Positions 37,538-59,157 of a stretch of 64,000 bases of DNA are shown here, in pieces. The notes below the pieces were generated by a model, which searched no databases, had not been told where the DNA came from, and worked only from the letters and a program-made list of their open reading frames with translations. Made by a program: the position numbers and the translations under genes. Every line of letters starts with the position of its first letter. Within the stretch, counting starts at the first letter, position 1. The stretch is from a virus: the IMG/VR virus record IMGVR_UViG_3300035698_026482, positions 96,001-160,000 of that record, one strand, 5' to 3'.

Positions 37538-38770
37538 TTATCCTCTTAACATCGGCGAAAGAAGTGAATCGTACATTTTACCAATAGCTGCGTAACAATA
37601 CTTTTTTCTAATAGTGTCACCAAGTTCTTGTGCCCATTGCTTAGGAATATCAGGAGATTTTCTGAATTTTTTCAAAGCCTGTTTGACGTTTGAATCAACA
37701 GGATTTGCCCAACGTGTACCTTCCATCCAAATACATCTATCAGACTCTTCTTGCGGGCGCCTATCAACGCGTTGTTGCGGAATTGGGTCCAGCGTGTACC
37801 CAATTTTTATGAATTTTCCTTCGTTCATAAAATCAAGATGTCCCGACCAGTCGGTGGCGATTACAGGTAAGTCAGATGCTGCCGCCTCAAGGATTGGTAA
37901 TCCATATCCTTCACCGCGAGTAAGCGTGACGTATGCCTTAATAGACGGTTCACGATATAATGCCGCAATTTCCTCATCTTCCATTTCACCATGAAGAAAA
38001 TATACCTTAGGAAATTGTCCCTTTCTGACTTGACTTAATACACTTACTAGCTTGGCGTTCGTGTCTCTCCGATCAATTAACGTTCCGCGTCCAGAATTTG
38101 TTTTTATGATGATGCCAACGTCTTCATCATTTTGATGAGTTTCACATAGGTGCTTAAGCGTATTGTAAATGTTCTTACGATCAGTAAGTGAATCGTTTGC
38201 AGTAAGCTGACCAACCATAAGATAGTTGAATGAGGTGTCTAGACCAAAATCAACATCTTTTTGCTTTTCAGTAATGGCATCAATGAATGATTCAGGAATA
38301 ACATGAATAGGAGTTGTCAATTCACCCGAATTTTTTAAAGTTTTTGCCGTGTGATTCGACGGCACAATAACCAAATCCATCTTATTGCAATGATCAATCC
38401 ATAGCGGGTTACAACGATCGGTTTCAACCGCGGCGGTCATTCCTACATTTACGTTAGCAAGCTCGGGTTGCCATTCATTGGGTAGCACAAGTTGGATAGA
38501 CACATCACACTTTTGAAATTTGCCGTCCGGACCTGTGGGCATTCTTGCATATTTCATAATTTCGCCAGCGAGCCCATCGTACATCGTCGGAACAAGGGCA
38601 AATGGAGTATTACCCCATCTAACCAGACTAATATATAAATCGATCTCTTGTTGCTCAGCAAGACCGATAAGATATTTTGCGACCTGACGTGAATGAACAC
38701 CGTATCCAGAACTTGTTAGCGCTGGTGCTTTGAAAATAACTCTTTTTTTCATAGTGCCTTTATTTCCCAC
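37538..38770 (-). CDS. Glycosyltransferase, GT-B/GT4-like
   Basis: SSGYG N-terminal loop; TRGEGYGLPILEAAASDLPVIATDWSG donor-binding motif. Confidence 0.88.
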   Translation of the reverse strand: MGNKGTMKKRVIFKAPALTSSGYGVHSRQVAKYLIGLAEQQEIDLYISLVRWGNTPFALVPTMYDGLAGEIMKYARMPTGPDGKFQKCDVSIQLVLPNEWQPELANVNVGMTAAVETDRCNPLWIDHCNKMDLVIVPSNHTAKTLKNSGELTTPIHVIPESFIDAITEKQKDVDFGLDTSFNYLMVGQLTANDSLTDRKNIYNTLKHLCETHQNDEDVGIIIKTNSGRGTLIDRRDTNAKLVSVLSQVRKGQFPKVYFLHGEMEDEEIAALYREPSIKAYVTLTRGEGYGLPILEAAASDLPVIATDWSGHLDFMNEGKFIKIGYTLDPIPQQRVDRRPQEESDRCIWMEGTRWANPVDSNVKQALKKFRKSPDIPKQWAQELGDTIRKKYCYAAIGKMYDSLLSPMLRG

Positions 38771-40017
38771 TGTTTGAATGACGTCTTACGATTACTTTTC
38801 CAATTTTTGATTGTTTCGTGCATCGTTTTATCCCAGGCGTCTACTGTATCTTGAATGACAAATTCTGATAGCACGTATTGCCTTGCCTTTTCACCAATTT
38901 CGCTGCGTTTTTCATGGCCCATGTCATACATTTTCATAAATGCATCAGCAACGGTATCTGGCGAAACATGATCTTCATAGATATATGGAACAGGTTGACC
39001 ACCTACAAGATCCCTAACTTCAGGATCTAACGCAATACCATTTTGCGATCCGTCTCTATGATCGATGACCTGGCGGGTCAACCCACCTGTTTTCTGGGCG
39101 ATAATAGGCAAACCGCACTGCATAGCCTCAAGGGTTGATAGGCCAAAGCCTTCATGACAGCTTATGTTAACACAACAATCTGAAATGTTATAAAGGATTG
39201 CCATTTCATCAAAGTTGATGCGCCCAGTTGAGTATACAACATTGTCTCTCACTCCAAAGTGATCTGCTATCACCGGTAAATTTTGACCCTCTTGATCACC
39301 GGGATTAGTGTGTAGCAACAGCGTAGCATCGCGCTTTCCTGTTTTCGCTTCTAGCGCATCTACAAACTTGCTCCAAGCCAGCAATACATTGCCAGGCATC
39401 TTCCTACGCGCATTCCTATTGACCCAAATACAAGTAAAGTGATCTAAGCGTTCCTTGCCTAGGATGCGCTCCTTATGCGTAAGTGATTCAGCGACAGGTA
39501 ATTTTCTAAAGATACTCTTGGGTAATGCGTGCGGTATAAAATTTGTTTTATCAGGAAAGTGTTCACTAACGAGTTCATATGTCAAATGTGAATGACAGTT
39601 AATGAGGTCAGTTGACTCATATAACACCTCGTTAAACTTTGGGTACGGATCGTTGTCCCAAACATGCCAATAAACAATTGGACAAATCTGGTGAATTTCT
39701 TCTTCCATTTGCCAAACCCAGGTGAAAAAGCGGGGATCTGTGAATAGAAAAATCGCATCGGGCTTTTCTTTCAGTAACATCTCACGCAATAGATCTGGGG
39801 TACCAAATCCGTCAACTGGTTTAACGATGAAGTCTGCGTTGACTGTTTGTAGGCTGTAGTCAACATGTCTAATTGCACCGCCAAGTACGCGAAACGTCCA
39901 ACGATTTTTCTTAATAAGCCCTTCAATTAAGTGTTTCGCCTGACATCCCACGCCACTAGTATTTAGCGGATTGTCCGCGAGCATTAGTATTTTGTATTTC
40001 TTCATAATTTTACCCAA
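38749..40017 (-). CDS. Glycosyltransferase, GT-B/GT4-like
   Basis: NRNARRK; SCHEGFGLSTLEAMQCGLPII motif. Confidence 0.88.
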   Translation of the reverse strand: MGKIMKKYKILMLADNPLNTSGVGCQAKHLIEGLIKKNRWTFRVLGGAIRHVDYSLQTVNADFIVKPVDGFGTPDLLREMLLKEKPDAIFLFTDPRFFTWVWQMEEEIHQICPIVYWHVWDNDPYPKFNEVLYESTDLINCHSHLTYELVSEHFPDKTNFIPHALPKSIFRKLPVAESLTHKERILGKERLDHFTCIWVNRNARRKMPGNVLLAWSKFVDALEAKTGKRDATLLLHTNPGDQEGQNLPVIADHFGVRDNVVYSTGRINFDEMAILYNISDCCVNISCHEGFGLSTLEAMQCGLPIIAQKTGGLTRQVIDHRDGSQNGIALDPEVRDLVGGQPVPYIYEDHVSPDTVADAFMKMYDMGHEKRSEIGEKARQYVLSEFVIQDTVDAWDKTMHETIKNWKSNRKTSFKQWEIKAL

Positions 40018-40100: not shown

Positions 40101-40922
40101 TCATGAGCCAGGACAATGCGAGGTTGCCTTGAAGTCACAGTACTGACATGAAAGCCTGTTTTTCGGCGAGTGCTCTGCTTTTACTGCGCGCAGCATCTTA
40201 TCAATAGAGGAATTAACTTTCTCTTCCATCTTCGGGCCAACTGATACTTGAATTAATTGGCACTTTGAACCAGGCTTTGCAGTTCTTTTTAGCAATACAA
40301 ATCCGGCCTTCAAATCTTTCATGTCAATATCAAATTTGCGAGACCAAAATATTTTATACGCTGCAGCTTGGGCATTCGTCTTGAACTCACGCATTTTTTG
40401 TGCACGCCAGCCCCATCCTGTCGTTTTCCAGTCTAGAATACTAATAACCTGCTTACCTCTTTTGGTTTTATGCTTGATAGTCGCGTCAACAAAACCTTTC
40501 CACATATTGCCAGGATGACCTAGATGATCAAGTGATTCGTAAAGCAATGCCTCGGCACCGACCGGTTCCCAATCTAGAAACGTTGTATCCATCCACGCCG
40601 GTAATTCCTCAAGAATTTCCTTTGCCTGCATTATCCACGTATCTTTGTCGGAATATTGATTTTTATCCCAGGTTTCGGCAATCATCGTCAAGATTTTCTC
40701 GATAGGCATTTCACCTGTGTTGAGAAAATCCTCACATCCTTGGTGAACATGATTTCCGAAAAACGTATGCTCATTTCCATCGAACGGATTAAGTTTTTGG
40801 ACGTATGAAAGATGATGCTTCCACGGACAATCAAGCCATGTCGCAAGCTCAGAAAAGGAAATATGCGGCTTGCCAGTTGGAAGTAAAGACAAGTGAACCT
40901 TGTCATCTTTCATATCGCTCAT
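40101..40922 (-). CDS. PD-(D/E)XK nuclease, Cas4/AddB-like with a predicted Fe-S cysteine staple
   Basis: ISFSELATWLDCP...KGFVD...ILDWKT...CQYCDFKATSHC (C...CxxC-x6-C). Confidence 0.8.
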   Translation of the reverse strand: MSDMKDDKVHLSLLPTGKPHISFSELATWLDCPWKHHLSYVQKLNPFDGNEHTFFGNHVHQGCEDFLNTGEMPIEKILTMIAETWDKNQYSDKDTWIMQAKEILEELPAWMDTTFLDWEPVGAEALLYESLDHLGHPGNMWKGFVDATIKHKTKRGKQVISILDWKTTGWGWRAQKMREFKTNAQAAAYKIFWSRKFDIDMKDLKAGFVLLKRTAKPGSKCQLIQVSVGPKMEEKVNSSIDKMLRAVKAEHSPKNRLSCQYCDFKATSHCPGS

Positions 40923-40955: not shown

Positions 40956-41768
40956 TTAAGTTACTGGGCTAGCAAAACAGCGTTCAGATTGCCCAATTAT
41001 ATTTTCATAAGCCGTATGACGTACAGACCATCCAGCTTCCTTAAGCATTAAATTTAAATCGCCGCTATGAAAACCGAAAAGATGACCTGCCTGTAATGAT
41101 GGGGCATCATTTTCAATTGGGACTTCAATATGAAGATAAGAGAGTGGTGATACTACTTCACGCAATTTGCATAGCGCGCCATACGGATCAGAAATGTGCT
41201 CAAAAACATGATAGGCAACAATGATTGATGCGTCATGTATATCAGGAAATTTTTCATCATGCATTAGATCAATCATTCCTGTGTTAAATCCCAAGGCACG
41301 CCCAAGGGCGACATTTGAGGGCACAACGTCATATCCGATCGCGTTCTTTACAAGCCCTGACGCTTCATAATGTTGCAATAGCTTCGGAAACCTAAATCCA
41401 ATCTCCACAAAATTTTCGCTAGACGAAAAAATCGGCAGCTCATCATCGCGTCTCAATATTTCATCAAACTTCAGCAGCTCATCATAGCGTATTTTATCAA
41501 ATCTCTCAAGCGGCTGCATTAATTTGGTTTGGGCATCGCTAATTTGTGACTCTACCGGGGCCCCAGTGAATGTATTGCCTCGTGACGCTTGCAGCATAAC
41601 TCTAAATTTATCAGTTGGCGCTTCATAATATACTCTTTCACCAACCGGGGCGTAATGCATAAAATGTTTTTGATATGCGCTTGCATCTCGATACTCTGAC
41701 CAAGATGTTAAGTTAACTTCAGGAATTAATTTCGCAAGATCTTGTTTAAAGTTGTCGTTTTCTGACAT
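40956..41768 (-). CDS. Class I SAM-dependent methyltransferase-like protein
   Basis: VEIG...GYDV...YHVFEHISDP...LHIEVP Rossmann methyltransferase pattern; glycine loop is degenerate. Confidence 0.6.
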   Translation of the reverse strand: MSENDNFKQDLAKLIPEVNLTSWSEYRDASAYQKHFMHYAPVGERVYYEAPTDKFRVMLQASRGNTFTGAPVESQISDAQTKLMQPLERFDKIRYDELLKFDEILRRDDELPIFSSSENFVEIGFRFPKLLQHYEASGLVKNAIGYDVVPSNVALGRALGFNTGMIDLMHDEKFPDIHDASIIVAYHVFEHISDPYGALCKLREVVSPLSYLHIEVPIENDAPSLQAGHLFGFHSGDLNLMLKEAGWSVRHTAYENIIGQSERCFASPVT

Positions 41769-41783: not shown

Positions 41784-42077
41784 TCACGCAAAAAAGCGTG
41801 TATCGCTGATCGCTTTATCGTCTACGAAAATGTCATAAAAAGGTTTTCCCATCATTAACTCATGATGTTTAACGTCCCAATCATTCATTTGTTTTGCAGT
41901 TAATTCAGACCAGTCGATACCTGTTGTTTTGCCCCTTGAGGTATAAAGCTTGATAATGTGACCGTCATCATATAGCTTATTTACGACGACGATGCGTTCT
42001 ACATACGGTAGTGCGTCGTCATATTTGCCATCCGTATTATTACAAAGAGTGCCGTCGATATCGAACATATAAACCAT
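41784..42077 (-). CDS. Short HAD-family phosphatase (capsule-biosynthesis phosphatase type)
   Basis: YMFDIDGTLC, YTSRG, MGKP..DIFVDDKA: HAD motifs I-IV. Confidence 0.85.
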   Translation of the reverse strand: MVYMFDIDGTLCNNTDGKYDDALPYVERIVVVNKLYDDGHIIKLYTSRGKTTGIDWSELTAKQMNDWDVKHHELMMGKPFYDIFVDDKAISDTRFFA

Positions 42078-42430
42078 TAATCGCCCTTGATAAGCCTAAT
42101 GCTATCTTCGTCAAAGTGTTCTGTTGAAAATTCAAACAGCTCAGAGTCTTCATGCGCAATCATTTGATGGACAGTTTCCGGTGGGAGCTCGTACATGTCG
42201 CCTGGATTAAGCTCAATTGATTGAATGTTTGTCGACGTCTCAGTGAGCTCGTCGAGTGGGATTACTCGTAGCGTCATTTTGCCTGACTGTAGATAAAAGG
42301 TTTCATGTTTTACCCTGTGATAGTGAAAGCTGCACCTCTTGTCCTTATTGAAGTAAAGAAGCTTTCCACAATACATTTTATCATTGTGGATCCACAGTTC
42401 GTGACCCCACCCTTTTTGTACAAACTTCAT
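42077..42430 (-). CDS. Cupin sugar isomerase (mannose-6-phosphate/lyxose isomerase-like)
   Basis: KGWGHE...SFHYHRVKHETFY...HQM cupin metal-binding motif. Confidence 0.75.
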   Translation of the reverse strand: MKFVQKGWGHELWIHNDKMYCGKLLYFNKDKRCSFHYHRVKHETFYLQSGKMTLRVIPLDELTETSTNIQSIELNPGDMYELPPETVHQMIAHEDSELFEFSTEHFDEDSIRLIKGD

Positions 42431-42431
42431 C

Positions 42432-43307
42432 TTATTTCACACTTCTTAGCTTATCGATAATCGGCAATTCGCTATCGTAAACACGCTTAACACCATCGCC
42501 AAGCATACGCTCTGCGATTTCAACATGCTCAACAATTTTTCTAATTCCATCAGGTTCAATAGAGGCAGCCTGATCAGATCCGTACATTGTACGATCCAGT
42601 GTGATATGAAATTCAATAACTTCGGCGCCTAATCCAACAACAATGGGTGCCCACACGAGTCCACTATAATGATTTGAAAAACCAATACTCGGCATGTTTG
42701 TAGGAAACGATTTCTGTACCAGTGTACGAAGATGAGCCAGGCCAGTTAGATTCATCTCTTCAGGCAATGTGGGATAAGTGCTGGTACAATGCATTACGCA
42801 TCCAACCTGACCTCCTACGGATTTAATATGCTCTAGCGCATCAGTGATTTGAGCTGGGGTACTCATACCTGTCGATAAAATCATAGGCTTACCAGTCTTG
42901 GCGAGCTTTGTCAAAAACGACTTATCTGTAAGCATTGCGCTGGCAACCTTATGCACAGGTGTATTGAATTGCTCAATAAAATCGATACTTCGCTCATCCC
43001 AACATGATACAAACCATTCGATGTTTTTTGATTTGCAATAGGCGTCAATTGCAAGAAACTCATCTGTACCGAACTCTAATCCATACTTTTGTTCACGATT
43101 AGTTGTTCCCCAAGGGCTTTCTCTAGGACGATCCAGCTCTTCTTTTGTATAAACTGATTCAATATCTCGCTTTTGAAATTTGACTGCGTTGCAGCCTGCG
43201 TCAGCAGCAGCGTCGATCAGTTTTTTAGCAATATTGAAATCGCCTGAAGCGTTGATGCCAATCTCCGCAATAATGTAAGTGTTTCGCATACGCTTAAGTG
43301 ATGTCAT
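42432..43307 (-). CDS. neuB: Nonulosonic-acid synthase, NeuB/SpsE family, short form lacking the C-terminal SAF domain
   Basis: YIIAEIGIN, AVKFQKR, KVASA, ILSTGMS, MHCTSTYP, SNH, HITLDR..YGSDQAASIEP; protein ends ~30 aa after this motif. Confidence 0.9.
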   Translation of the reverse strand: MTSLKRMRNTYIIAEIGINASGDFNIAKKLIDAAADAGCNAVKFQKRDIESVYTKEELDRPRESPWGTTNREQKYGLEFGTDEFLAIDAYCKSKNIEWFVSCWDERSIDFIEQFNTPVHKVASAMLTDKSFLTKLAKTGKPMILSTGMSTPAQITDALEHIKSVGGQVGCVMHCTSTYPTLPEEMNLTGLAHLRTLVQKSFPTNMPSIGFSNHYSGLVWAPIVVGLGAEVIEFHITLDRTMYGSDQAASIEPDGIRKIVEHVEIAERMLGDGVKRVYDSELPIIDKLRSVK

Positions 43308-43333
43308 TTTGAATTCTCTTTTTGATGAGCGTG

Positions 43334-43522
43334 CTAAATTTTGCGACTAACAAACCAAATTTGGGGGCAGCGCTCAATGATGCTCGGTATCTCATTATAC
43401 GGCGCAGATGCATACTTGGATGGAAATTGTGTTGTAAATCCCAGGTTTCCATTATTGTGCCGCCAAGGTAGAGATGCTCCATCCCAGTCATATCTGTATA
43501 AATCGCCTTGTTGATGTAGCAT
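43334..43522 (-). CDS. Small hypothetical protein
   Basis: ATG at 43522 overlaps the SDR stop (TGATG), suggesting translational coupling. Confidence 0.4.
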   Translation of the reverse strand: MLHQQGDLYRYDWDGASLPWRHNNGNLGFTTQFPSKYASAPYNEIPSIIERCPQIWFVSRKI

Positions 43523-44289
43523 CACCATGACGTCCAGCCGGCATCGACAGCTATATCCTGACCTGTGATATAAGACCCCAAACTTGTTGCCAATAGCATA
43601 ATTACACCTTTTATCTCTTCGGGTTGGCCGACACGACCTAGCATCGTTCGATTATTCAACTCTTTCTCAAACCAACCTTTTCCGTCAAGTGACCCAGGTC
43701 GAGAAAACGGTCCAGGACTAATTGAATTACAGCGTATGTTTTTATGTCCCAAATGCGCGGCAAGCCACTTTGACGCCTGTATCAAAGCGGCCTTGCTTGC
43801 GCCATATTCAAGCGCGTTGCCACCAGAACCCTTATACATTTTTGGATCTGGTGACACTTTTCCATACATCGACGCTACATTAATAATGCTGCCGCCGATC
43901 GACATATGCTGCGCTGCGATCTCCTTCGTCAGGTATAATTGGCCGACGACGTTGTTACTGAATGATGTATCTATATCATCCCATGATGCTTTCATGAAAT
44001 CATGCTGTTTTGGCCAGGCGCACATATTGTTGATTAAAACGTCAACATGCCCAAGGTGTAATACTAGCTCATCAATGGATTCGTGATCAGTAATGTCGGC
44101 CTCGATTGTTGAAATATGACCAGCCATTTCTGTACCAGCGAATAATTCAGATTGTCCACGAGAAACAACAGTAACGCTAGCACCGAGTTCGACGAGCGCA
44201 TCCGTCATAGCATGTCCAAGCCACCCCTGTCCGCCCGTAACAACAGCGTGTTTACCATCCAGATTCATCATTTCAGAAATTGATTTCAT
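43522..44289 (-). CDS. Short-chain dehydrogenase/reductase
   Basis: VTGGQGWLG, LINN, YGASK catalytic motif, NSISPGP, DAGWT. Confidence 0.9.
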   Translation of the reverse strand: MKSISEMMNLDGKHAVVTGGQGWLGHAMTDALVELGASVTVVSRGQSELFAGTEMAGHISTIEADITDHESIDELVLHLGHVDVLINNMCAWPKQHDFMKASWDDIDTSFSNNVVGQLYLTKEIAAQHMSIGGSIINVASMYGKVSPDPKMYKGSGGNALEYGASKAALIQASKWLAAHLGHKNIRCNSISPGPFSRPGSLDGKGWFEKELNNRTMLGRVGQPEEIKGVIMLLATSLGSYITGQDIAVDAGWTSW

Positions 44290-45103
44290 TGAGAATGCCT
44301 TCTACTATTCTTTTGTTTTGTTTAAAAACGTTAATGTCAGTTACGCCGCGTATGCGAGCAGTTTGAAAGGTCACACGATCAACACCAGACGTTTTTATCA
44401 CACGGGATATTACCCCAAGGTCTAAATCTCCCGTGCCAAGAGGGACGCTTGTGCCGCCTCTGAGAGCATCCTTTATATGCACATTGGTAACGCGTTCACC
44501 ATACTCAGATATATGCGCATCGATATCATGACCAAGTCTGGTCAAGTTTCCTGTATCTAAAGTAGCTGATGCTTTACAGAATTTATCCATATTATTGAGG
44601 GTTTCTGCAACCTCTTTTGGCCGTAAATCTGTTTCGATAGAAAATTCTACGTTAGCATGATCAGTGTACTTAAGAATCGTTTCCAACCCGTTTAATACTT
44701 CATCTCGCTTAAAGGGAAGTCGAATCGATGCTTCCTCCAAGAATGGAAGTATGATACGGTTAATGCCAAGAAATTGACACTTGCGTATAAGCTCTTCAAT
44801 AATATTTCTATGATCTTCAATGTGAAAGCCGCCTTGATGTCCTAGAAAAGTATCCATGCACACACCAGATATTTCAACATTAAATTGTTGACGTAGGTAC
44901 GCAACATCATGAAGCCCAAATTTCATAAGTGGGTTACAATCGCCATACATCAGATCACTTTTATTCGTAAGAATCCATTCAATATGGGTACATTGAACTT
45001 GTGATGCTAAATCAAATTCATTAAGATAATCCTTTTCAGGAAAACGCTGAATGAATTCACCAACCTGCGGGACTAGACGTCCCTGTACTATTCCATAGTT
45101 CAT
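44273..45103 (-). CDS. Sugar-phosphate isomerase/epimerase (xylose-isomerase-like TIM barrel)
   Basis: GIVQGRL, SIETD, LDTGN, NVHIKD and VPLGTGDLD motifs. Confidence 0.8.
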   Translation of the reverse strand: MNYGIVQGRLVPQVGEFIQRFPEKDYLNEFDLASQVQCTHIEWILTNKSDLMYGDCNPLMKFGLHDVAYLRQQFNVEISGVCMDTFLGHQGGFHIEDHRNIIEELIRKCQFLGINRIILPFLEEASIRLPFKRDEVLNGLETILKYTDHANVEFSIETDLRPKEVAETLNNMDKFCKASATLDTGNLTRLGHDIDAHISEYGERVTNVHIKDALRGGTSVPLGTGDLDLGVISRVIKTSGVDRVTFQTARIRGVTDINVFKQNKRIVEGILNEINF

Positions 45104-45702
45104 CGCTTTCGAGCAATCGCAGTCGCATATCCCAAGCGACCGGCTTGTCCGGGGTGGGGTTTTGCAATAATGTCAACTTGGCCAAATCCACGAGCTTGTA
45201 ATAGCTCAACAAATTCGCCTAGTTGAAATTCGCATAAGTGTTGTTTTGTAATTGGGCTTGGTCCCGTAGTCTTGCAATATGGCGTTGTTACGATGAACAA
45301 TCCGTTGTACTTCAAATGTGTGCGCATATTTTCGAGATATGGGTAAATGCCGTCATCGGATAATGGCATATGCTCAATCGTCTCAACGCTTACAATTTTG
45401 TCCTTGAGGTCTCCTCCCCACTTCTTTGATAAATCCTGTTGACGAAAAAGGATTCTATCATTTGCGTAATTTGCATTTGCATATTCTAATGCGTCTAATG
45501 ACATGTCCAATCCTACAACTGATTTGCAGTGTTCAACTAAAATATTTGATCCATATCCAACGCCACATGCCGCGTCAAGAATATCATCGCCTGGCTCAAG
45601 ATATTTTGAGGCAGTGACATATCGCATTACATGGCGTAAATGTGTTGGAGTGATAAACTCGGTGCCAGTTTCTGTCTCATGTGATTTCATTGAAGCGTCC
45701 AT
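45100..45702 (-). CDS. Class I SAM-dependent methyltransferase
   Basis: HVMRY...ILDAACGVGYG...VGLD...SVETIEH. Confidence 0.88.
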   Translation of the reverse strand: MDASMKSHETETGTEFITPTHLRHVMRYVTASKYLEPGDDILDAACGVGYGSNILVEHCKSVVGLDMSLDALEYANANYANDRILFRQQDLSKKWGGDLKDKIVSVETIEHMPLSDDGIYPYLENMRTHLKYNGLFIVTTPYCKTTGPSPITKQHLCEFQLGEFVELLQARGFGQVDIIAKPHPGQAGRLGYATAIARKR

Positions 45703-46433
45703 CCTCCGTCGACGACAATGTTGGCGCCAACCATATACCTGTTACGTTCATTAAGAAGCATCTCCAGGGGTGGCATAAGATCTTCCGTATTACACATACG
45801 CCCGGCTGGCGCGTGATTACTATAGATTTTATGAAATGCCTCTGACTGATCGGCCTTAACACCACCGGGGGAAATGCAGTTAACACGCATATCGGGATCA
45901 AGGTGGATCAGGTGTGTTGCCAAAATACGAGACATATGAATAACAGCGGCCTTGGACGTTGAATAGCCACAATTTTTGTGGTTACCATCATACATGTCAG
46001 TGCGGGCGGTTACGATGCCTGTGGATGCGCCGAAGTTGATAATGTTGCCGCCTTGACCTAAGCGTGATCTGGCGTATTCCTTGCAAACCATGAACATTGC
46101 GGACACATTTACATCCATACACGATTTAAAGTCTTCATAGGACTGATCCAAAATGCTACCACGCTTTTCTCCTGACTTAACATGATCATTCCATGCAAAG
46201 CAGTTGATGATAGCTTCAAAGTCATTGTCTGCAAATATTTTTTTGACCGTCGATTCATCAGTCAAATCATGTCCACGAGACAAATCAAAACGACTAATAG
46301 CGAAGTAGGGACAATCCCAAGAATATCCATCTAGCTCCAGGCCATTGAAGTGTCTATAAATTGCCTTACCGATAAGGCCTTCGCTGCCTAGCAGTGCTAT
46401 TTTACGTTCATTACTCAATGGTTTCTCTTCCAA
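45687..46433 (-). CDS. Short-chain dehydrogenase/reductase
   Basis: LLGSEGLIG, IINCFA, YSTSKAA, NCISPGG, VVDGGW. Confidence 0.85.
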   Translation of the reverse strand: MEEKPLSNERKIALLGSEGLIGKAIYRHFNGLELDGYSWDCPYFAISRFDLSRGHDLTDESTVKKIFADNDFEAIINCFAWNDHVKSGEKRGSILDQSYEDFKSCMDVNVSAMFMVCKEYARSRLGQGGNIINFGASTGIVTARTDMYDGNHKNCGYSTSKAAVIHMSRILATHLIHLDPDMRVNCISPGGVKADQSEAFHKIYSNHAPAGRMCNTEDLMPPLEMLLNERNRYMVGANIVVDGGWTLQ

Positions 46434-47440
46434 TCTCTGATCTGGCTAATGAAGTCGAACTCTTCAAATCGATCACAGTATTCACGAGTAATATGCGTAT
46501 TCCATCGCTTAACAATTTCGCCAGTTGTCCAGCCGAGACCTTGTTTATTTAGTTTGCCTGATCCGAATTCTTGGCCGTTTAGCTTATTACATGGCAAAAG
46601 ATTATTGAACGTGCCAGTAAACATAGCCTCATCCATTTCAAGAATATCGTATGGATCTAAGTTCTTTTCGATAACCTCAATCTCGTCCCACCCTTCAATA
46701 TCTTCGTTTGCAGGACAAAGCTCATCGATGATGAACTGCATGCTGCATCCGCGAAGCATGTTGCGACGTGCGGGCACGATGAGATTAAAATCCTTCACCA
46801 TGAGGCAATCGGCGCCAGCGCTTCCACATACGAATCCCTGATCATCAAGCATCAATGGAATAGCCTTGGGGCCATGTGACTTCATCTCGAGATTGGCCAG
46901 CATGTAGTGCATACGGCTTCTATTCTTGACCTTTGCTTCAAGATACTGAGATGGGATTTGGCGTTGCGTGGTAATGCGTGCGTCTGCTGGTTCATCGTAG
47001 AAATGGGCCAATGTCTTGGTGGTCTTACTAAGTGGCCAAATGTTGATAATCCATGTGGGCTGATTCCAATTGTCGCCGTCCTCAAGCTCGAACACCTCTT
47101 TATAGATGCCAAGAGGTCCACGTGACACGTTAATCATAAAGCGGTATTCTTCCCATGATGGTAACGGATTACGCTTGATGGCTTCATCACATAAACCCCT
47201 GACTTCTTGTTTAGTCTTAGTGATTGGAATTTGCATGTACTTCATGCTTGTCCACAATCGATCGATGTGCTCGTCAAGAAGGAAGTGCTTATGATTGAAC
47301 GTGCGATGCATCTCGAATACAGCGTCGCCAAACATCACGTGACTATCATAAATGTGGATGCTTGCCTGCGCCTCGGGCAACCATTTTCCATTTTTATATG
47401 TGTATCGATCGCTCATTGCTTTTCCTGACCTCTTTTCCAT
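46415..47440 (-). CDS. PLP fold-type IV enzyme (branched-chain/D-amino-acid aminotransferase or ADC-lyase family)
   Basis: MFGDAVFE, HIDRL, KVKNRSR (PLP lysine), EAMFTGT motifs. Confidence 0.8.
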   Translation of the reverse strand: MEKRSGKAMSDRYTYKNGKWLPEAQASIHIYDSHVMFGDAVFEMHRTFNHKHFLLDEHIDRLWTSMKYMQIPITKTKQEVRGLCDEAIKRNPLPSWEEYRFMINVSRGPLGIYKEVFELEDGDNWNQPTWIINIWPLSKTTKTLAHFYDEPADARITTQRQIPSQYLEAKVKNRSRMHYMLANLEMKSHGPKAIPLMLDDQGFVCGSAGADCLMVKDFNLIVPARRNMLRGCSMQFIIDELCPANEDIEGWDEIEVIEKNLDPYDILEMDEAMFTGTFNNLLPCNKLNGQEFGSGKLNKQGLGWTTGEIVKRWNTHITREYCDRFEEFDFISQIRDWKRNH

Positions 47441-48132
47441 TCCTCATTACGAAAGTCATTGATTTTTCTTAGGCCTGGCGCGCGTTCAAAAAAATTTACT
47501 ACATCGTCGCGGGCACAATCAAATTTTAAATTCTTCGCTACCGTTCTTAGTAGCCAATAATCCTCTTCATAATCTAATGTTAATCTTAGCAGATGTTCAG
47601 ATGCACGTAGACGGGGGGCAATAAATTGCGACGTAATAATTGACGAATCAAAAAAATGCCATATCATTTCTGTGTTCGAAGATTGTTTCGTTTTGCATGA
47701 TTTATCAATTGCAGAGCGGCGTAGCGCCCACCCATGTGAACCAAGATATGCGTTCATATCAGGCTTGACTACCTCGACGTCGCGTAAGGAGAAATATGCA
47801 AGCTTGCTTAACTCGTTATCGAAAAATGGATCATCACAATCAACAGTGACAAATTTATCGATATTAAATTCGTTACATGTGTCGCGCCATCGTAATAATT
47901 TGTCTTCCACGTGTCCTGCATGACACATAATGTCATGCTTTTTTGCTATTTGTCTAATTGCGGCATCAGCGTCAAGATGCGTTGTTGAAATAACTGGCGT
48001 CATTCCAAATGTTTTTACCCGATTAATGACGTGTTCTAGAACAGTTTTCTCATAAAATGAAAGTAAGCACTTATTCGGTAATCTGCTTGAGCCAGTTCTA
48101 ACTGTAATCATTGCATAAATTTGTTCAGACAA
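47413..48132 (-). CDS. Cytidylyltransferase, NeuA/KdsB/SpsF-like (CMP-ulosonate synthetase)
   Basis: ITVRTGSSRLPNK, VDCDDP, RLTLDYEEDY. Confidence 0.82.
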   Translation of the reverse strand: MSEQIYAMITVRTGSSRLPNKCLLSFYEKTVLEHVINRVKTFGMTPVISTTHLDADAAIRQIAKKHDIMCHAGHVEDKLLRWRDTCNEFNIDKFVTVDCDDPFFDNELSKLAYFSLRDVEVVKPDMNAYLGSHGWALRRSAIDKSCKTKQSSNTEMIWHFFDSSIITSQFIAPRLRASEHLLRLTLDYEEDYWLLRTVAKNLKFDCARDDVVNFFERAPGLRKINDFRNEEWKRGQEKQ

Positions 48133-49105
48133 ATAAGCTCCTTACAAAATCATCAATCTCTGATGAACGTTGTTGCAGGTCTGTGATGGTTGCGTTGTCA
48201 ACAGCGTCTGCGATATTGCTCGGCGTTGGTTCTGACAAGTGCACATAATTCATTGTATCAGGATGCTTGAAGCAGGTGAAACGCCTATCGTTGTATAGCA
48301 CGTCAGCGTTGACATAGTATAATCCCATCGGAACTATATCTGTATATGCCGAGGAGCCAAATCCGACTGTTGCAACGGCCGATAATGGAATTGCTATGGG
48401 TTCAGCTGGATACCACGACTCGTCGTAAATTGTTCTGCAGTTTTTGTGTGTGACGCTTTGCCATTTTCTGCGCTGTTTAACAATAACGCTATACCCTCTA
48501 TTGATTAGCTCATCAATCGTATTATTCGCCAGGGTCGTGTGACCTTGATCTGGATATAGAACAAATACAACAGGATTTTTTTCAGTATTAGTTAACTCAG
48601 AACCAAAATTAAGCGACTCAGAAAGGGACCAAAAGGGGACAGGTACAGGCGGCACATAAACTTGTCCATATTCCCTACAAGTTTTCGCCAATGGTTCATT
48701 ACAGATATATCCATCAAAGTTTGTATTTTTTAACTTAGGTCCCAAGCCGGCGGCGCTGTCAAAACCATGTGCAATGGCGTAATGCTTCGCTCGCCAGACA
48801 TCGACATTTGAAGTTTCTACAGAAAATAATGCGTCGAATGCATTTGATAATATTATCGCTTTGTTAGAAGCAACTGATCTAATGTAGGGGCGAAGCGCAA
48901 GTATCTCATCATAACGCGTCCTATTTTTCGAAACAGCGTTATACTTTGTGCAGTTTTCATTGTGGAAAAAATGTATATCAGCATCGGGATACACGCGTTT
49001 AATAACATCTACTACAGGTATAAGGTACCGAAGGTGTGTCATTCCTGCGATGTCAAACGCAACGGCGCCCAGAGACAAAGCAGTGCTTGTATTTTGTATT
49101 TCCAT
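48125..49105 (-). CDS. Hypothetical protein, possible GT-B-fold ulosonate transferase
   Basis: Alternating beta/alpha two-domain pattern; cotranscribed immediately upstream of the CMP-synthetase. Function by context only. Confidence 0.35.
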   Translation of the reverse strand: MEIQNTSTALSLGAVAFDIAGMTHLRYLIPVVDVIKRVYPDADIHFFHNENCTKYNAVSKNRTRYDEILALRPYIRSVASNKAIILSNAFDALFSVETSNVDVWRAKHYAIAHGFDSAAGLGPKLKNTNFDGYICNEPLAKTCREYGQVYVPPVPVPFWSLSESLNFGSELTNTEKNPVVFVLYPDQGHTTLANNTIDELINRGYSVIVKQRRKWQSVTHKNCRTIYDESWYPAEPIAIPLSAVATVGFGSSAYTDIVPMGLYYVNADVLYNDRRFTCFKHPDTMNYVHLSEPTPSNIADAVDNATITDLQQRSSEIDDFVRSLFV

Positions 49106-49688
49106 ATGACACCAGGTCGTATCTGTTTTCTAACGTGCTAATAACATCATCAAATTTCTTGTTGGGACAAAGGCCGTTATGCACTTCCATTACAAACGAT
49201 TCTATATTATCGAATGCTGGAGCGTCGATTAATTCATACTCGGCGCCTTCGATATTGATCTTTGCAAAATCAACGTCCTTAAGAATATCATCAAACGGAA
49301 AAACGTCGACGATTATCGCGGACGGGTCGCCATAGCGACCATTGCGATCGGAAAACATGTTCGTTGATTGATTATCGTCATTAGATAGCGTAATCATTTG
49401 GCATTTACCTGATACGGTGCCTAATATGCCCGGAACATGTTGAATTGTACGTTCAGGATATGCTTGAATTATCTTTTCAATTTCTGGAAAACATGCCGTA
49501 TGTGGCTCAACAAAAATATAATGTGCATCTGGGAAGTTTTTTCCAAATGCGCCATATCCCTCGCCGAGCCTTGCGCCAAGGTCAACTATTTTCTTTGGCA
49601 CACGCTTATCTACGTTGTCCTCAATGGAGGACATGCATAATTCATAAATTTTACAATTAGTTAGTGAGCTGTGACCGAGATATGCCAT
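49053..49688 (-). CDS. FkbM-family methyltransferase
   Basis: IVDLGA..G, FVEP, FAKINIEGAE, MEVH. Confidence 0.78.
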   Translation of the reverse strand: MAYLGHSSLTNCKIYELCMSSIEDNVDKRVPKKIVDLGARLGEGYGAFGKNFPDAHYIFVEPHTACFPEIEKIIQAYPERTIQHVPGILGTVSGKCQMITLSNDDNQSTNMFSDRNGRYGDPSAIIVDVFPFDDILKDVDFAKINIEGAEYELIDAPAFDNIESFVMEVHNGLCPNKKFDDVISTLENRYDLVSYGNTKYKHCFVSGRRCV

Positions 49689-49691
49689 GTG

Positions 49692-50339
49692 CTAATTCTT
49701 CACATAAGTTGTTGAGATGTATAACTGAGGCGCTTCTGGCCATAAGAATAGCAATGATACGGCAGTTGGCTTCAATTGTTGTGGGGTTAGTATTTGTGGC
49801 ACTTCTGCGCCGATAATACTCGTCAATGTCTGCTCATCGTCGTAGCCGAATTTCGAAATATGCTCGCGAAATTGTACGCTTTCTGGCGCAAATTCGAATG
49901 ATGGATCCCAAAACGTAGACCATAACTTGGACGTGTGTGAACCATACTCAACAACCTCGTGATGTCCATGACGTTGCCACCCAACCTTGTACGGCTCTTG
50001 CCGCCAATGGTCGCCTAGACCCCAATCGACAAAAACAGTTCCGCCCGGCCTAACCAATTCTAAACATTGGGCTATAAACCGGGCGGGATTTTCAGCAAAA
50101 TATGGACATCTTGTGCAAACAACTAAATCCGCAAGCCCCCTTGGGATCTGCCAATTGTCATCATTTATTTGCCAATTATCTAGTGATAAATCATAATATT
50201 GTTTATTCGACGCCTTAAAAAGTGATGCAAACGCATCCGGGCCCGACAAACCTAAAAATATCACATTTTGCGCATCAGTCAAATGGGTAGTCAGCTGGCG
50301 ATGATACCAGGGTATCACATGCGCATTTGATTTACCCAT
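49692..50339 (-). CDS. Methyltransferase-like protein
   Basis: VIFLG...YYDL...ADLVVC...LVRPGGTVFVD Rossmann methyltransferase pattern. Confidence 0.5.
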   Translation of the reverse strand: MGKSNAHVIPWYHRQLTTHLTDAQNVIFLGLSGPDAFASLFKASNKQYYDLSLDNWQINDDNWQIPRGLADLVVCTRCPYFAENPARFIAQCLELVRPGGTVFVDWGLGDHWRQEPYKVGWQRHGHHEVVEYGSHTSKLWSTFWDPSFEFAPESVQFREHISKFGYDDEQTLTSIIGAEVPQILTPQQLKPTAVSLLFLWPEAPQLYISTTYVKN

Positions 50340-50356
50340 TTGACTAGCACTTTTGA

Positions 50357-50563
50357 TTATTCGTTAATTTCGTAAAGACCGACGTTGTCTTTATCAAAAA
50401 CCAAAAAAACCTTTTCGATATTGTTGGCCGCAGCAAGATGTTTTTGCAACCATTCGCCTGGAAGAAATCCAGACTTTGCAATGTCGGTGCCGTGGGCAAA
50501 AAGTTTAATACATCGCCCATTTGCATAGGCTTCGTTTGCGGTTTCTTTATCTAGCATAGCCAT
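50357..50563 (-). CDS. Small hypothetical protein
   Basis: 68-aa ORF filling the gap between co-oriented genes. Confidence 0.5.
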   Translation of the reverse strand: MAMLDKETANEAYANGRCIKLFAHGTDIAKSGFLPGEWLQKHLAAANNIEKVFLVFDKDNVGLYEINE

Positions 50564-50567
50564 GATA

Positions 50568-51461
50568 TTATTTCTTTCGTTTGACGCCCGAAACTCTTTC
50601 CCAATCCCGACCCGGGCGAACCTCGAGATTTTTATTCCAAGCAGCTTCCATAACTGATGGTGTTACACCATTTGTTTTTGCAAGCTGAATAAATGCGCTT
50701 AAATCTTTTGGCAAACACATGCCGCCAAATCCATTCATCATAGCGCCTTCTGGCGATGGCGATGGTCCTGGCACACGCCAGTGTTCCCATCCCATCCTGT
50801 CATCAAGTGTTGCAATTTCGATCATATCACTATACTCAACGTTTAGTGCTTGACAAATTTGATACATTTCATTTGCGAATGAAACTTTCGTAGCGAAAAA
50901 GCAATTTTTGACATACTTTACAATTTCGGCTTCTTGGGCAGTACATTTGACAATTTTTGCGCCAGGAAGCAAGCGGGAAAAAAGTTCCCCTACTCGATCC
51001 TTTGCACTATCAGATTTGCCGCCGAGAACAACATGACTTTGTGTAATAAAGTCTTGATACGCCGATCTTGCATTTAAAAATTCTGGATTAAAGACGACCT
51101 CAATGTTCGCGTTTGCCGCGTCGAGCTTCTCGGTCGTTCCAGGTAAAATGGTTGATTTTACGACAATCGCAGGTTTGTCAGCATAGCGTTGTGATGATGC
51201 AAATTGATTGATCTCATCTAAAACGCTTTCGACAATGCTTGTGTCGCACGTATCATCCTCATTCATGGGCGTTGGCACACAAACGAAAATGACGTTACAG
51301 TTTTTTGATATCCACTCTAATGATTGTGTTGTACGATCAACATTAAATTTATCGTACGTTTCTACCTCGAGTCCCGGAACGAGCTTTCTAAATGCACGAC
51401 TAACGGAGCTTCCTACGAAGCCCTGTCCAATAACACCAATGCGCCAGACGTCCACATCCAT
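50568..51461 (-). CDS. ugd: UDP-glucose/GDP-mannose dehydrogenase family protein (short, no C-terminal domain)
   Basis: IGQGFVG, VCVPTP, VVKST, FNPEF, KYVKN, GFGGMCLPKD (catalytic Cys). Confidence 0.85.
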   Translation of the reverse strand: MDVDVWRIGVIGQGFVGSSVSRAFRKLVPGLEVETYDKFNVDRTTQSLEWISKNCNVIFVCVPTPMNEDDTCDTSIVESVLDEINQFASSQRYADKPAIVVKSTILPGTTEKLDAANANIEVVFNPEFLNARSAYQDFITQSHVVLGGKSDSAKDRVGELFSRLLPGAKIVKCTAQEAEIVKYVKNCFFATKVSFANEMYQICQALNVEYSDMIEIATLDDRMGWEHWRVPGPSPSPEGAMMNGFGGMCLPKDLSAFIQLAKTNGVTPSVMEAAWNKNLEVRPGRDWERVSGVKRKK

Positions 51462-51464
51462 ATC

Positions 51465-52235
51465 TTATACTAATTTCTTGACGTCGTGCACTGTAGAGCT
51501 ACTTTTTTTTAAAAGATCGCCTATGAATGCAAACTCAACTGGATTGTTAGTAAGCCACAAAATAATCTCATCTGCAGCCTTAGGCGACAAATAACCGCCA
51601 TCCCACGTACATGCGTGATATAACGCCTCAATATGTTCGTCTGGGCCAGCATCATTAAGATGTGTGTTTGGGGGCCACACGTTTGCATAAACAACATTGT
51701 TTACTGTTCGGTCTGCGCCCTCGTAACATGCGGTGTGATGTGGCATAGTTGAAAGAGCAAGAACGTCGAATGCTTGCGTCACGGGCGGATGCAGTATGGC
51801 GTCAGAGGTCATATACATTGCAGGAGGTCTAAGGATTGGTTTAAAAATGTCCTGTAATCCCGCATCTACAACGTCTTGGCACATATCTGAGTATAACGCG
51901 AGTAACTGAGGACCGTCGAGATGTCTTAATTCATCATTGTTTGAAAGCCCCGCAACACCATGATGGCGCCCATGAAATCCCACTTCAAAATTTGAAGCTG
52001 GTAATGTCTTAAGACGCCGACAAAATTCTGGATGTTCCTTGAGATACAGGGGCCTTTTATTGCGCGTATCTATTTTTCCGCCGGGCATCGTGCGCCAGTA
52101 CGCCGTTGGTACGAATAGCGTAAATTTCGCCTGCGGAAAGCTGTCGATAATCTTAAAGCATTGATCAACAACGGCTATTGATGAAAGTGGATGCGGCGAT
52201 ACGTCGTCGATCGAAATATTGATTTTTCTAGACAC
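51465..52235 (-). CDS. Polysaccharide deacetylase-like protein (NodB/DUF2334 type)
   Basis: ISIDDV, VGFHGRHH, LRPP motifs. Confidence 0.7.
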   Translation of the reverse strand: MSRKINISIDDVSPHPLSSIAVVDQCFKIIDSFPQAKFTLFVPTAYWRTMPGGKIDTRNKRPLYLKEHPEFCRRLKTLPASNFEVGFHGRHHGVAGLSNNDELRHLDGPQLLALYSDMCQDVVDAGLQDIFKPILRPPAMYMTSDAILHPPVTQAFDVLALSTMPHHTACYEGADRTVNNVVYANVWPPNTHLNDAGPDEHIEALYHACTWDGGYLSPKAADEIILWLTNNPVEFAFIGDLLKKSSSTVHDVKKLV

Positions 52236-53194
52236 TATGTCGACAACAATCTTTCAAAAAAACGAATATAAGGTGCCATTCCTTGTGCACCGAAAAGCGA
52301 AATTACTCTATCGAAATTTGATCCCGTATCTGCATTCCTAATCGCAGCTCTAAGACCCGCTAGCGGTTCGTCTTTCTCTTCGATTTTATAGATTGCGCCA
52401 CCCTTATCATAAACGCCAAGTATACCTTGCGCATATCCAACGGGCGTAGAAATTATAGGTGTCTGATTTGCTGCGCATTCGAAGATTGCTTGTGGACCGC
52501 CTTCGTGTCTGGATCCGACAACGTATAAATCTAACGTGTTATATAGCTCATTAATTGTTTCAAAATCTGGGCGCTCGAAATATTTGTATGAAATACCCGC
52601 AGCATCCAGGCGCTTAATAACATACTGGCGACGCCATCCAGCTAACACAACTAGCAGACGTTTTTTCTTTTTTGCTAATTCTTCTACAACATCGCAGAAT
52701 ACATCTGGACCCTTTGCAAGCTTAGGCGTGATTAAATCGTGTCCCTCTGTGTCTCGTTGGAAACTACCGACCAAATACCCATTGTCTGGAAGTTCATGCT
52801 TTTTTCGACAATCAGATTTTGGTAGTGGTGACCAAAGGCGTTGGTTTACCCAAAACGGTTGAATAAACACAGGCTTTTTTGTAATTTCAGATACAGCAGC
52901 ACCAGTTTGTCCACATGGCACATGATACCAATCTACGAACTGATCTCTTGCAATAAATTCGCGTTGTGCATCTGGACCAAATTTATCTGGATCAATATGA
53001 TGAACTGTGCAAACAACCTTTTTTTCCAGCAGGAGCTGCTGGGGCAAATGGTTCCAGCACCAGCCCGCAGCTAGCCAAATGATATCAGCTTCGCGCGGAT
53101 CAGGTGTTGAAATTTCGCGATTAGCCTCGTACCATTCTTTAACGAATCGGTCGACGACCCAATCTTCATTTGGGCGTAATACAAAAATCTTCAT
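52235..53194 (-). CDS. Glycosyltransferase, GT4-like
   Basis: GSRHEGGPQAIFECAANQTPIISTPVG. Confidence 0.85.
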   Translation of the reverse strand: MKIFVLRPNEDWVVDRFVKEWYEANREISTPDPREADIIWLAAGWCWNHLPQQLLLEKKVVCTVHHIDPDKFGPDAQREFIARDQFVDWYHVPCGQTGAAVSEITKKPVFIQPFWVNQRLWSPLPKSDCRKKHELPDNGYLVGSFQRDTEGHDLITPKLAKGPDVFCDVVEELAKKKKRLLVVLAGWRRQYVIKRLDAAGISYKYFERPDFETINELYNTLDLYVVGSRHEGGPQAIFECAANQTPIISTPVGYAQGILGVYDKGGAIYKIEEKDEPLAGLRAAIRNADTGSNFDRVISLFGAQGMAPYIRFFERLLST

Positions 53195-55306: not shown

Positions 55307-55322
55307 GAAAGTATATACGCAT

Positions 55323-56048: not shown

Positions 56049-56054
56049 AACGAC

Positions 56055-58788: not shown

Positions 58789-58976
58789 ATGTCCCCAACA
58801 GCATCATACAGTAAGTTTCCCTCAGGGTACACTGTAAAATTAAGTCTGGCGTCTTACCATGATAAAAATAATTCTATACATTTATTCTGGAACGTATACT
58901 ATTAGAAAGGGGGCTTGGCGGAAGAGGGGGCCAACCAGGGCGAGACAGGGTGCTAAAAAGGTCTTCCAAACCGGGC

Positions 58977-59086: not shown

Positions 59087-59102
59087 AGACGGAGCTAAGC
59101 AA

Positions 59103-59135: not shown

Positions 59136-59157
59136 GAGGTTCGGGTCCTAAGCCATA

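Follow-up and report, generated by a model that had tools for sequence, protein, structure and literature searches.

Positions 41784-48132 of the stretch of viral DNA analysed here probably hold, at a probability that we put near 0.6, the core of a phage operon making a tailored 3-deoxy-2-ulosonic acid activated with cytidine monophosphate (CMP), a sugar of the kind of sialic acid, ketodeoxynonulosonic acid (KDN) and ketodeoxyoctulosonic acid (Kdo). The whole stretch, called the window below, is 64,000 nucleotides long and corresponds to bases 96001-160000 of the IMG/VR virus record IMGVR_UViG_3300035698_026482, which has 182,840 bases and a CheckV completeness of about 53%. The sequences show which families the proteins belong to, that active-site residues are intact, and that the genes are linked and co-occur; the substrates, the order of the steps, the product and the acceptor are inferred.

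In the proposed route, a metal-binding cupin would convert a ketose phosphate of the host into a manno-configured aldose phosphate, which a NeuB-family synthase devoid of the SAF domain would condense with phosphoenolpyruvate (PEP), and a small phosphatase of the haloacid dehalogenase (HAD) superfamily, of AfhF type and hereafter called mini-HAD, would remove the terminal phosphate. Oxidation, epimerisation or amination, and methylation would fall to two short-chain dehydrogenases/reductases (SDRs), a triosephosphate isomerase (TIM) barrel protein, a methyltransferase and, if it is active, a class IV aminotransferase. A cytidylyltransferase would activate the sugar with cytidine triphosphate (CTP), and a TagF-like GT-B protein, together with soluble glycosyltransferases of the surrounding island, would transfer it to an acceptor of cytoplasmic origin. 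Four of these genes (NeuB, cupin, HAD and cytidylyltransferase) had been named in a sequence-only reading of this DNA, and Pfam matches and motifs place them all where that reading put them; the five others, which lie inside the same interval, had gone unmentioned in what was described as a four-enzyme island.

Synthase, probable isomerase and phosphatase

All genes discussed are on the minus strand and were mapped from the open reading frame (ORF) listing and from Pfam, NCBIfam and PHROG scans. Those of the synthase (42432-43307), the cupin (42077-42430) and the mini-HAD (41784-42077) follow one another with a single nucleotide between the first two and a one-nucleotide overlap between the last two, and are translationally coupled.

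The synthase, of 291 amino acids, belongs to the PEP-dependent ulosonate synthases and matches PF03102 over profile positions 1-241 of 241 (220.6 bits vs. a cut-off of 22.1), while it scores below the equivalog cut-offs for Neu5Ac synthase (TIGR03569, 216.9 vs. 399.65) and pseudaminate synthase (TIGR03586, 178.7 vs. 340.25). That it is SAF-less, as read earlier, holds: no SAF domain was found in the protein or anywhere in the 182.8-kb record. A NeuB domain that lacks the antifreeze-like one is a feature it shares with the SAF-less NeuB proteins of environmental bacteria, noted earlier with no function assigned (PMC8208679), and with the Leptospira-type short NeuB 6NCS. The latter is the best Protein Data Bank (PDB) match, but a distant one (E 7e-34 over about 270 residues), and, unlike it, the phage clade carries an EFH/SNH signature of its own.

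Residues E15, K43, Q45, K120, S123, S211, H213, E232, H234 and D245 are kept in the alignment. With respect to the NeuB of Neisseria meningitidis (NmNeuB), both metal-binding histidines and E25, K53, Q55, K129, S132, S213, E234 and D247 are conserved, whereas H30, E134 and R235 are replaced by Ala, Met and Phe, respectively; the E134 position is S, C, L or M across the whole SAF-less clade. Substitutions in two motifs, INASG and EFH, had raised the worry of an inactive enzyme. A survey of 120 metagenomic, 92 bacterial and 39 viral relatives found EFH together with SNH in 68 of the 120 best metagenomic matches, a large subclade (the EFH clade numbers at least 76 sequences), and Ala20, the INASG variant, in 13 of the same 120 matches and in three viral copies. 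Four positions consistently separate the EFH from the ERH form, and E214/R233 of the ERH form become Y214/F233 in the EFH form, a swap that reads as a compensated pair, by which EFH appears to have arisen. With the metal ligands, E25 and E234 (NmNeuB numbering) also kept, the worry seems misplaced: EFH looks like the mark of a large clade and INASG like a rarer variant within it, and neither looks like decay. Three further residues, all basic, hardly vary across 221 SAF-less sequences, while most SAF-bearing paralogues lack them: R62 lies in an insertion specific to the clade, and K286 and R288 belong to the short C-terminal tail. They are candidates for binding an anionic substrate.

In a maximum-likelihood tree, the window protein, whose closest homologue is 81% identical, groups with other EFH sequences in a clade (46 rows, metagenomic and viral; support 99) whose sister is an ERH clade of viral members only. 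Taken together (60 rows, support 96), the two include no sequence from a bacterial genome. A NeuB phylogeny had been proposed as a check; the one built is an unlabelled tree, which gives this placement among relatives and not one relative to KDN-9-phosphate synthase, NANS, LegI or PseI. Two related phage loci also carry a second, very divergent NeuB paralogue (L086:11658-12428 and L088:15497-16312; about 25% identity, very long branch), flanked by SDR genes on one side and by the cupin/HAD pair on the other. Its E-x-H metal motif has become L-F-Y and its S-x-H motif G-S-H. This protein of the NeuB fold has probably been repurposed or is non-catalytic.

The cupin (117 amino acids; Cupin_2, phrog_7851) has an invariant metal site made of His36, His38, Glu43 and His88. 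Its AlphaFold2 (AF2) model has a mean confidence score (pLDDT) of 94.7, and the top Foldseek matches are D-lyxose/D-mannose isomerases (7NZO/7NZP/7NZQ, 2Y0O and 3KMH), some of whose structures contain bound fructose or mannose, and the small Thermococcus phosphomannose isomerases. A profile search against the PDB gave 2Y0O (E 7e-8) and 7NZO (7e-6), then L-ribose isomerases and 7ZVM. The match to PF07385 is above the cut-off (25.9 vs. 20.8) but only 42 residues long, and the protein lacks the extra 60 or so residues of true D-lyxose isomerases. Going by these models, the cupin is most likely an aldose-ketose isomerase. Of the genes next to that of the mini-HAD, a cupin occurs at 17 loci and a GmhA-like SIS isomerase at 13, never both at one locus; L083 and L084 carry the SIS gene at the position that the cupin occupies in L085 and L086. 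The earlier proposal that the cupin supplies a hexose phosphate is borne out as regards the likeness to mannose/lyxose and phosphomannose isomerases, whereas a hexose substrate is not implied, since GmhA-like isomerases alternate with the cupin. As the product of such an isomerase, mannose-6-phosphate, a manno-heptose-7-phosphate and a free aldose are all compatible with these data.

As for the mini-HAD, a capless protein of 97 amino acids from the AfhF/'capsule biosynthesis phosphatase' family (phrog_1238), its motif I-IV residues D6, D8, T46, K78, D82 and D87 are invariant in 14 phage homologues. The AF2 model (pLDDT 88) finds 9IQW, the AfhF of phage HY126, as its top Foldseek match (33% identity, E 2e-6, TM score 0.78), followed by 1XPJ, the phosphatase domain of T4 Pnk, HisB-N and GmhB, and the family profile also retrieves 9IQW from the PDB (E 1.9e-21). 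The TIGR01689 score is 18.7, far below the cut-off of 162, so the protein would be a relative rather than an equivalog of that family, and the KDN-9-phosphate phosphatase and KdsC models NF058599 and TIGR01670 give no match to it. Thus, the description of this HAD as a shorter subfamily of the KdsC/KDN-9-phosphate phosphatases has to be given up in favour of a different, AfhF/TIGR01689-like HAD family, although its function may still be equivalent to that of a KDN-9-phosphate phosphatase. AfhF itself is a Mg-dependent phosphatase that takes the 5-phosphate off arabinose-1,5-bisphosphate in the UDP-arabinose route of DNA arabinosylation (PMC13326640).

Members of this family are common in viral contigs, where at least 537 stretches were counted. 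Among the 53 closest mini-HAD loci with adequate flanks, a SAF-less NeuB was found in 15 and an HldE-C-like nucleotidyltransferase in another 15, and because the two never share a locus, the mini-HAD is taken to serve two alternative routes, of which the window has the NeuB one. No NTP_transferase was found in the 182.8-kb record; since neither a kinase nor a nucleotidyltransferase of that kind was detected, the context argues for a substrate other than a sugar 1,n-bisphosphate. A member of the family is also found in the cyanophage S-CAM1 of Synechococcus (NC_020837.1, 176821-180248), where the genes named 'cysteine dioxygenase' and 'phosphoheptose isomerase' code for a cupin isomerase-like protein and an AfhF-type mini-HAD, next to genes for an HldE-C-like nucleotidyltransferase, an unknown protein of 262 amino acids and a carbamoyltransferase. 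The set looks like an isomerase-kinase-phosphatase-nucleotidyltransferase route of sugar activation, and the public gene names look wrong.

Neighbours of NeuB in bacteria and phages

The surroundings of related NeuB genes were compared in 80 bacterial loci, with NeuB 49-56% identical, from Chloroflexota, Planctomycetota, Acidobacteriota, Omnitrophota and others, and in 34 IMG/VR phage loci, the neighbourhoods being rebuilt by ORF clustering. A KdsC-type phosphatase gene lies within 10 kb of NeuB in 70 of the 80 bacterial loci and is the next gene in most maps. The bacterial phosphatases that were scored reach 122.5 bits with TIGR01670, above its cut-off, and 106 bits with the KDN-9-phosphate phosphatase model, or are cytidylyltransferase::KdsC fusions. 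Other frequent neighbours are genes for TIM-barrel, GFO, SDR and GmhA-like SIS proteins and for an acetolactate-synthase-like thiamine pyrophosphate (TPP) enzyme. In the phage loci, no KdsC-type HAD was found, whereas the mini-HAD is present in 16, the cupin and the TIM barrel in 11 each, SDRs in 13-14, the class IV aminotransferase in 9 and the cytidylyltransferase in 21.

To our knowledge, all characterised members of the KdsC family act on 8- or 9-phospho-ulosonates, and because such enzymes are its neighbours, this NeuB clade very probably condenses a sugar phosphate. The earlier scheme of a sugar phosphate joined to PEP, dephosphorylated and then activated as a CMP-sugar is supported by this pattern of KdsC in bacteria and mini-HAD in phages. 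The SDR, TIM-barrel and aminotransferase genes also recur near NeuB in phages and, aminotransferase excepted, in bacteria, with TIM-barrel relatives adjoining NeuB in 33 of the 80 bacterial and 11 of the 34 viral loci. Loci L085 and L086 both hold the gene set of the block that runs in the window from the aminotransferase through the TIM barrel, SDR, NeuB and cupin genes to the HAD gene, in the same order in L085, and the recurrence of the cassette in syntenic form across IMG/VR phage contigs is far beyond chance. A triad of a PD-(D/E)XK nuclease and two GT4 glycosyltransferase genes stands beside the cassette in 7-14 of the 34 phage loci.

Concerning the bacteria, NeuB belongs to an uncharacterised cluster spread over many phyla (L001-L080; e.g. 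L057:5613-19774 and L063:5864-20475). It starts with CDP-hexose genes (nucleotidyltransferase, 4,6-dehydratase and an RfbH equivalog at 724 bits), the SAF-less NeuB and the KdsC-family phosphatase, and continues with the acetolactate-synthase-like TPP enzyme, a TIM barrel, a GFO oxidoreductase, an SDR, FkbM-type methyltransferases and a GT2 glycosyltransferase. The TPP enzyme is encoded downstream of NeuB in some phages too, as a split gene.

Putative tailoring, activation and transfer genes and the surrounding island

The cytidylyltransferase (47413-48132), a member of the CMP-Kdo/CMP-NeuAc synthetase superfamily (SpsF/PseF-like) present as a single copy in the record, scores 38.3 bits with PF02348 (cut-off 22.6). 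Its best PDB match is 6OEW (E 5.7e-12), and its RxGSxRLPxK and DxP signatures align with those of KdsB and 6OEW. The next gene (46415-47440; PF01063, 108 bits) codes for a divergent homologue of the fold-type IV aminotransferases, which act on branched-chain amino acids (BCAT), D-amino acids or R-amines. While the absence of DegT enzymes stands, the earlier premise of an interval free of aminotransferases does not. The catalytic Lys is kept in the alignment to BCAT structures, but the window protein has GSAGADCL where seven phage homologues have EG(T/P)G..NFF, GCSM in place of GISR, and two insertions; on these sequence grounds it may be impaired.

Minimal phage cassettes consist of a class IV aminotransferase, NeuB, the cytidylyltransferase and a SPASM protein of the radical S-adenosylmethionine (SAM) type. 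This pairing suggests oxidation of a hydroxyl followed by transamination, with SDRs possibly taking the place of the radical-SAM protein here. In Shewanella, KdnB oxidises and KdnA transaminates Kdo in the formation of Kdo8N, and BtrN/BtrS are a radical-SAM dehydrogenase and aminotransferase pair; both systems offer a precedent for turning a sugar hydroxyl into an amine by oxidation and transamination, but they belong to different enzyme families, and the aminotransferase of the window may be impaired.

Both SDRs match adh_short_C2. That of 45687-46433 does so with 89.4 bits, the PRK09186 and PtmA models being weak and under their cut-offs; that of 43522-44289, which resembles sugar-acid dehydrogenases, scores 141.7 bits, and its nearest models, gluconate-5-dehydrogenase and KduD-like, are likewise under their cut-offs. 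In the bacterial loci, the possibility that SDR and SIS pairs make amino-sugar phosphates in the manner of PtmA/PtmF was considered but left as an idea, since the SDRs reach no higher score with the PtmA model than with generic SDR models. The xylose-isomerase-like TIM barrel (44273-45103; PF01261, 47.6 bits) belongs to a superfamily of sugar and sugar-phosphate isomerases, epimerases and dehydratases, and its bacterial counterparts come nearest to L-ribulose-5-phosphate 3-epimerase models, under the cut-off. As for the SAM-dependent methyltransferase (45100-45702; Methyltransf_31/25/11), tblastn against the related loci found no viral and one weak bacterial match (21% identity).

The gene at 48125-49105 overlaps that of the cytidylyltransferase by 8 nucleotides and codes for a 326-aa protein with no Pfam, NCBIfam or PHROG match. 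Its ESM Atlas structure, with a predicted TagF-like GT-B fold, resembles PF04464 clusters (TM score 0.72, feature score 0.95), i.e. CDP-glycerol glycerophosphotransferases of the TagF type, and, as a lead only, the protein might transfer the CMP-activated sugar. All junctions between 49105 and 43522 overlap by 4 to 28 nucleotides. The gap of 214 nucleotides between the SDR and NeuB genes (43308-43521) was searched for signals with no convincing result, and a promoter and terminator scan of the cassette gave no excess over the shuffled expectation.

The cassette is the centre of a co-directional glycan island of about 21 kb, which adjoins baseplate genes. Directly downstream of the HAD gene lies a methyltransferase-like gene (40956-41768; Methyltransf_23 at 27.0 bits, at the cut-off) that is not kept in related loci and whose membership of the pathway is uncertain, followed by genes for a PD-(D/E)XK nuclease (40101-40922) and two GT4 glycosyltransferases (38749-40017 and 37538-38770), identified by Pfam-type scans. 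The upstream part of the island (49053-58788) codes for two methyltransferases, a truncated UDP-glucose-dehydrogenase-like protein, a DUF2334 protein, three GT4-like and two GT2 glycosyltransferases and an O-methyltransferase. Outside the interval, the island thus counts seven GT2/GT4-type and four methyltransferase-like genes besides the dehydrogenase-like and DUF2334 ones. Among its 27 proteins (window 36151-58788), no membrane protein, flippase, polymerase or priming transferase was predicted, the exceptions in the transmembrane prediction being an N-terminal hydrophobic stretch in a 194-aa protein (36950-37534) and an internal segment of NeuB barely over the threshold. The dehydrogenase-like protein (50568-51461; 297 amino acids, UDP-glucose/GDP-mannose type) lacks the first 66 or so profile positions of its NAD-binding domain and the C-terminal UDP-binding domain, and homologues of similar length are found in five related phage loci.

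Elsewhere, the window codes for a baseplate wedge protein, PhoH and a 566-aa HNH/homing endonuclease (4749-6449; phrog_3339, E 4e-64), which lies amid large structural-type genes. The cupin gene has the sole DNA-level match to sequenced phages (cyanomyoviruses, 70-80% identity), megablast of window positions 54000-64000 against sequenced phages returned nothing, and no sequenced phage is close to this record.

Related pathways and alternative explanations

NeuC, DegT, PseB/LegB-type and GNAT proteins were not detected in the 182.8-kb record, about 53% complete, nor was a Maf/DUF115 transferase, and a search of the whole record for hexapeptide acyltransferases gave a sub-threshold match only, outside the window. 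The absences noted earlier for the interval therefore extend to the whole record, which, as far as its sequence tells, does not provide for the canonical N-acetylneuraminic, legionaminic and pseudaminic acid routes. By contrast, a phosphorylated KDN route is established chemistry in Bacteroides thetaiotaomicron and Prymnesium parvum (PMC6200933). The phage system resembles this CMP-KDN pathway in its NeuB-family synthase, HAD phosphatase and CTP_transf_3-type cytidylyltransferase, in the lack of NeuC, dehydratase and DegT steps, and in that its nearest bacterial NeuB relatives are linked to enzymes of the KdsC/KDN-9-phosphate phosphatase family. It differs in having an AfhF-type HAD, a dedicated cupin isomerase, five interleaved tailoring genes and a SAF-less synthase whose clade is composed exclusively of viral and metagenomic sequences. 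The CMP-Kdo pathway employs the isomerase KdsD, the synthase KdsA, the phosphatase KdsC and the cytidylyltransferase KdsB. Its four-step logic (ketose phosphate isomerisation, PEP condensation, terminal dephosphorylation, CMP activation) is shared, and the phage cytidylyltransferase aligns to the KdsB signatures, but three of the four steps are non-orthologous, with a cupin for SIS-CBS, NeuB for the KdsA/DAHP-synthase type and a mini-HAD for KdsC. Judging from these comparisons, the system would work like the Kdo and KDN pathways, yet it fails their isomerase, phosphatase and synthase equivalog tests.

The UDP-arabinose route of phages HY126, RB69 and DLP3, with the kinase/pyrophosphorylase AfhE and the phosphatase AfhF (PDB 9IQW; PMC13326640), has in common with it a phage-encoded mini-HAD of the same fold, homologous to AfhF, and in both the enzyme would remove a terminal sugar phosphate. 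Unlike that route, the record has no kinase/pyrophosphorylase, SIS-type arabinose-5-phosphate isomerase or cytosine hydroxylase, and the partners of the mini-HAD are NeuB and a CMP-transferase. A recent preprint (SugarBase) reports CMP-ulosonic acids with skeletons beyond C9; these are diamino sugars, and the C10 compounds of Magnetospirillum, being Pse/Leg-like, were set aside as a match and retained as a precedent only. A literature search for phage cassettes of the NeuB/cupin/mini-HAD type found no paper, and one on teichulosonic acid and Kdn found no link to the enzymes.

Several observations weigh against the reading of the interval as the core of a CMP-ulosonate operon. The record is about half a genome. 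The match of the cytidylyltransferase is limited to the N-terminal 110 residues, the Glu at the ring nitrogen of pyridoxal phosphate (PLP) is Gly in the window aminotransferase and is kept in the seven phage homologues, and the transferase assignment of the 326-aa protein comes from a predicted-structure look-alike. KdsC and the KDN-9-phosphate phosphatase (3E81, E 0.046) are weak fold matches of the mini-HAD (E 0.03-0.05), and AfhF acts on a sugar bisphosphate in a nucleoside diphosphate (NDP)-sugar route, not on an ulosonate phosphate (PMC13326640). Finally, the nearest solved relatives of the cupin use unphosphorylated sugars, because of which the phosphatase could act before rather than after condensation.

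Four other explanations were considered. That the four enzymes make unmodified CMP-KDN from fructose-6-phosphate and mannose-6-phosphate, the other genes of the interval being unrelated, agrees with the likeness of the cupin to mannose and phosphomannose isomerases, with the KDN logic of synthase, phosphatase and cytidylyltransferase (PMC6200933), with the lack of an acetyltransferase in the record and with an aminotransferase that may be inactive. We nevertheless consider it improbable, and the plain non-acetamido KDN proposed earlier loses ground with it: the two SDR genes and those of the TIM barrel and the aminotransferase are interleaved, in overlapping frames, between those of the cytidylyltransferase and NeuB, they recur near NeuB as described above, and GmhA-like isomerases take the place of the cupin elsewhere. 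No better placed is a scheme in which cupin and mini-HAD work in an NDP-sugar route of their own, of AfhF/GmhB type, and NeuB uses a host aldose with no phosphorylated intermediate. AfhF is indeed the closest characterised relative of the mini-HAD, and S-CAM1 and 15 of the 53 mini-HAD loci have an HldE-C-like nucleotidyltransferase and no NeuB; but these two contexts are mutually exclusive among the relatives, the record has no NTP_transferase, and none of the island ORFs came out as a kinase or an HldE-type nucleotidyltransferase when scanned with Pfam, NCBIfam and PHROG. The coupling of NeuB, cupin and HAD and the complementary distribution of KdsC and mini-HAD across bacteria and phages also speak against it.

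Far less probable than either is that the island serves to attach sugars to the phage DNA, a hypermodification like that of the arabinosyl-5-hydroxycytosine phages, and builds no protein or envelope glycan. The AfhF-family phosphatase and the GT4-type transferases and PD-(D/E)XK nuclease conserved beside the cassette could be read in this way, and the DNA arabinosyltransferases of PMC13326640 yield GT4-like structural matches. Yet a search of the record for a hydroxylase or hydroxymethylase of the thymidylate synthase family found none, it has no NDP-sugar pyrophosphorylase, and the nuclease may be a mere neighbouring core gene; CMP-ulosonates, moreover, are not known as DNA-modifying donors. 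Similarly remote is the idea that NeuB and the aminotransferase are decayed and the cassette a non-functional remnant. It would explain the change of NeuB His20 to Ala and, in the aminotransferase, the lost PLP-N1 Glu and the GCSM motif, but all frames are intact and tightly packed, NeuB has a homologue as close as 81% and keeps its metal ligands, Glu15, Glu232 and the Lys and Asp residues, and both its EFH/SNH and its Ala20 variants recur among the 120 best matches and, for Ala20, in the viral copies.

Within the preferred reading of a tailored CMP-ulosonate, a C9 skeleton of the KDN type, from mannose-6-phosphate, is tentatively favoured; a C10 one from heptose-7-phosphate, which is allowed because the cupin alternates with GmhA-like isomerases, is clearly less likely and a C8 one doubtful, the remainder being unassigned. 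Plain KDN is an unlikely product. A more novel version, which we find rather unlikely, is an undescribed sugar with a non-KDN backbone (e.g. C10 from heptose-7-phosphate) and/or amination and methylation after condensation, attached in the cytoplasm to virion proteins by the soluble transferases of the island.

The route would be assembled from non-orthologous parts, the cupin standing in for the SIS isomerase and the mini-HAD of AfhF type replacing KdsC, with a NeuB from a clade that lacks SAF and includes no bacterial-genome sequence. The cassette is widespread: this NeuB was found in 34 IMG/VR contigs and the mini-HAD in no fewer than 537 stretches of viral DNA, and metagenomic homologues number in the thousands. 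The linked bacterial NeuB-KdsC clusters, with their TPP enzyme, TIM barrel and oxidoreductases in many phyla, are equally uncharacterised. The small set of expressible proteins of the phage cassette could give new sugar chemistry and new CMP-sugar tools. Sialic-acid-like sugars determine the recognition of cells and viruses, and if the reading is true, versions made by phages could coat the virion or remodel the surface of the infected cell, with consequences for receptor masking, superinfection exclusion and grazing.

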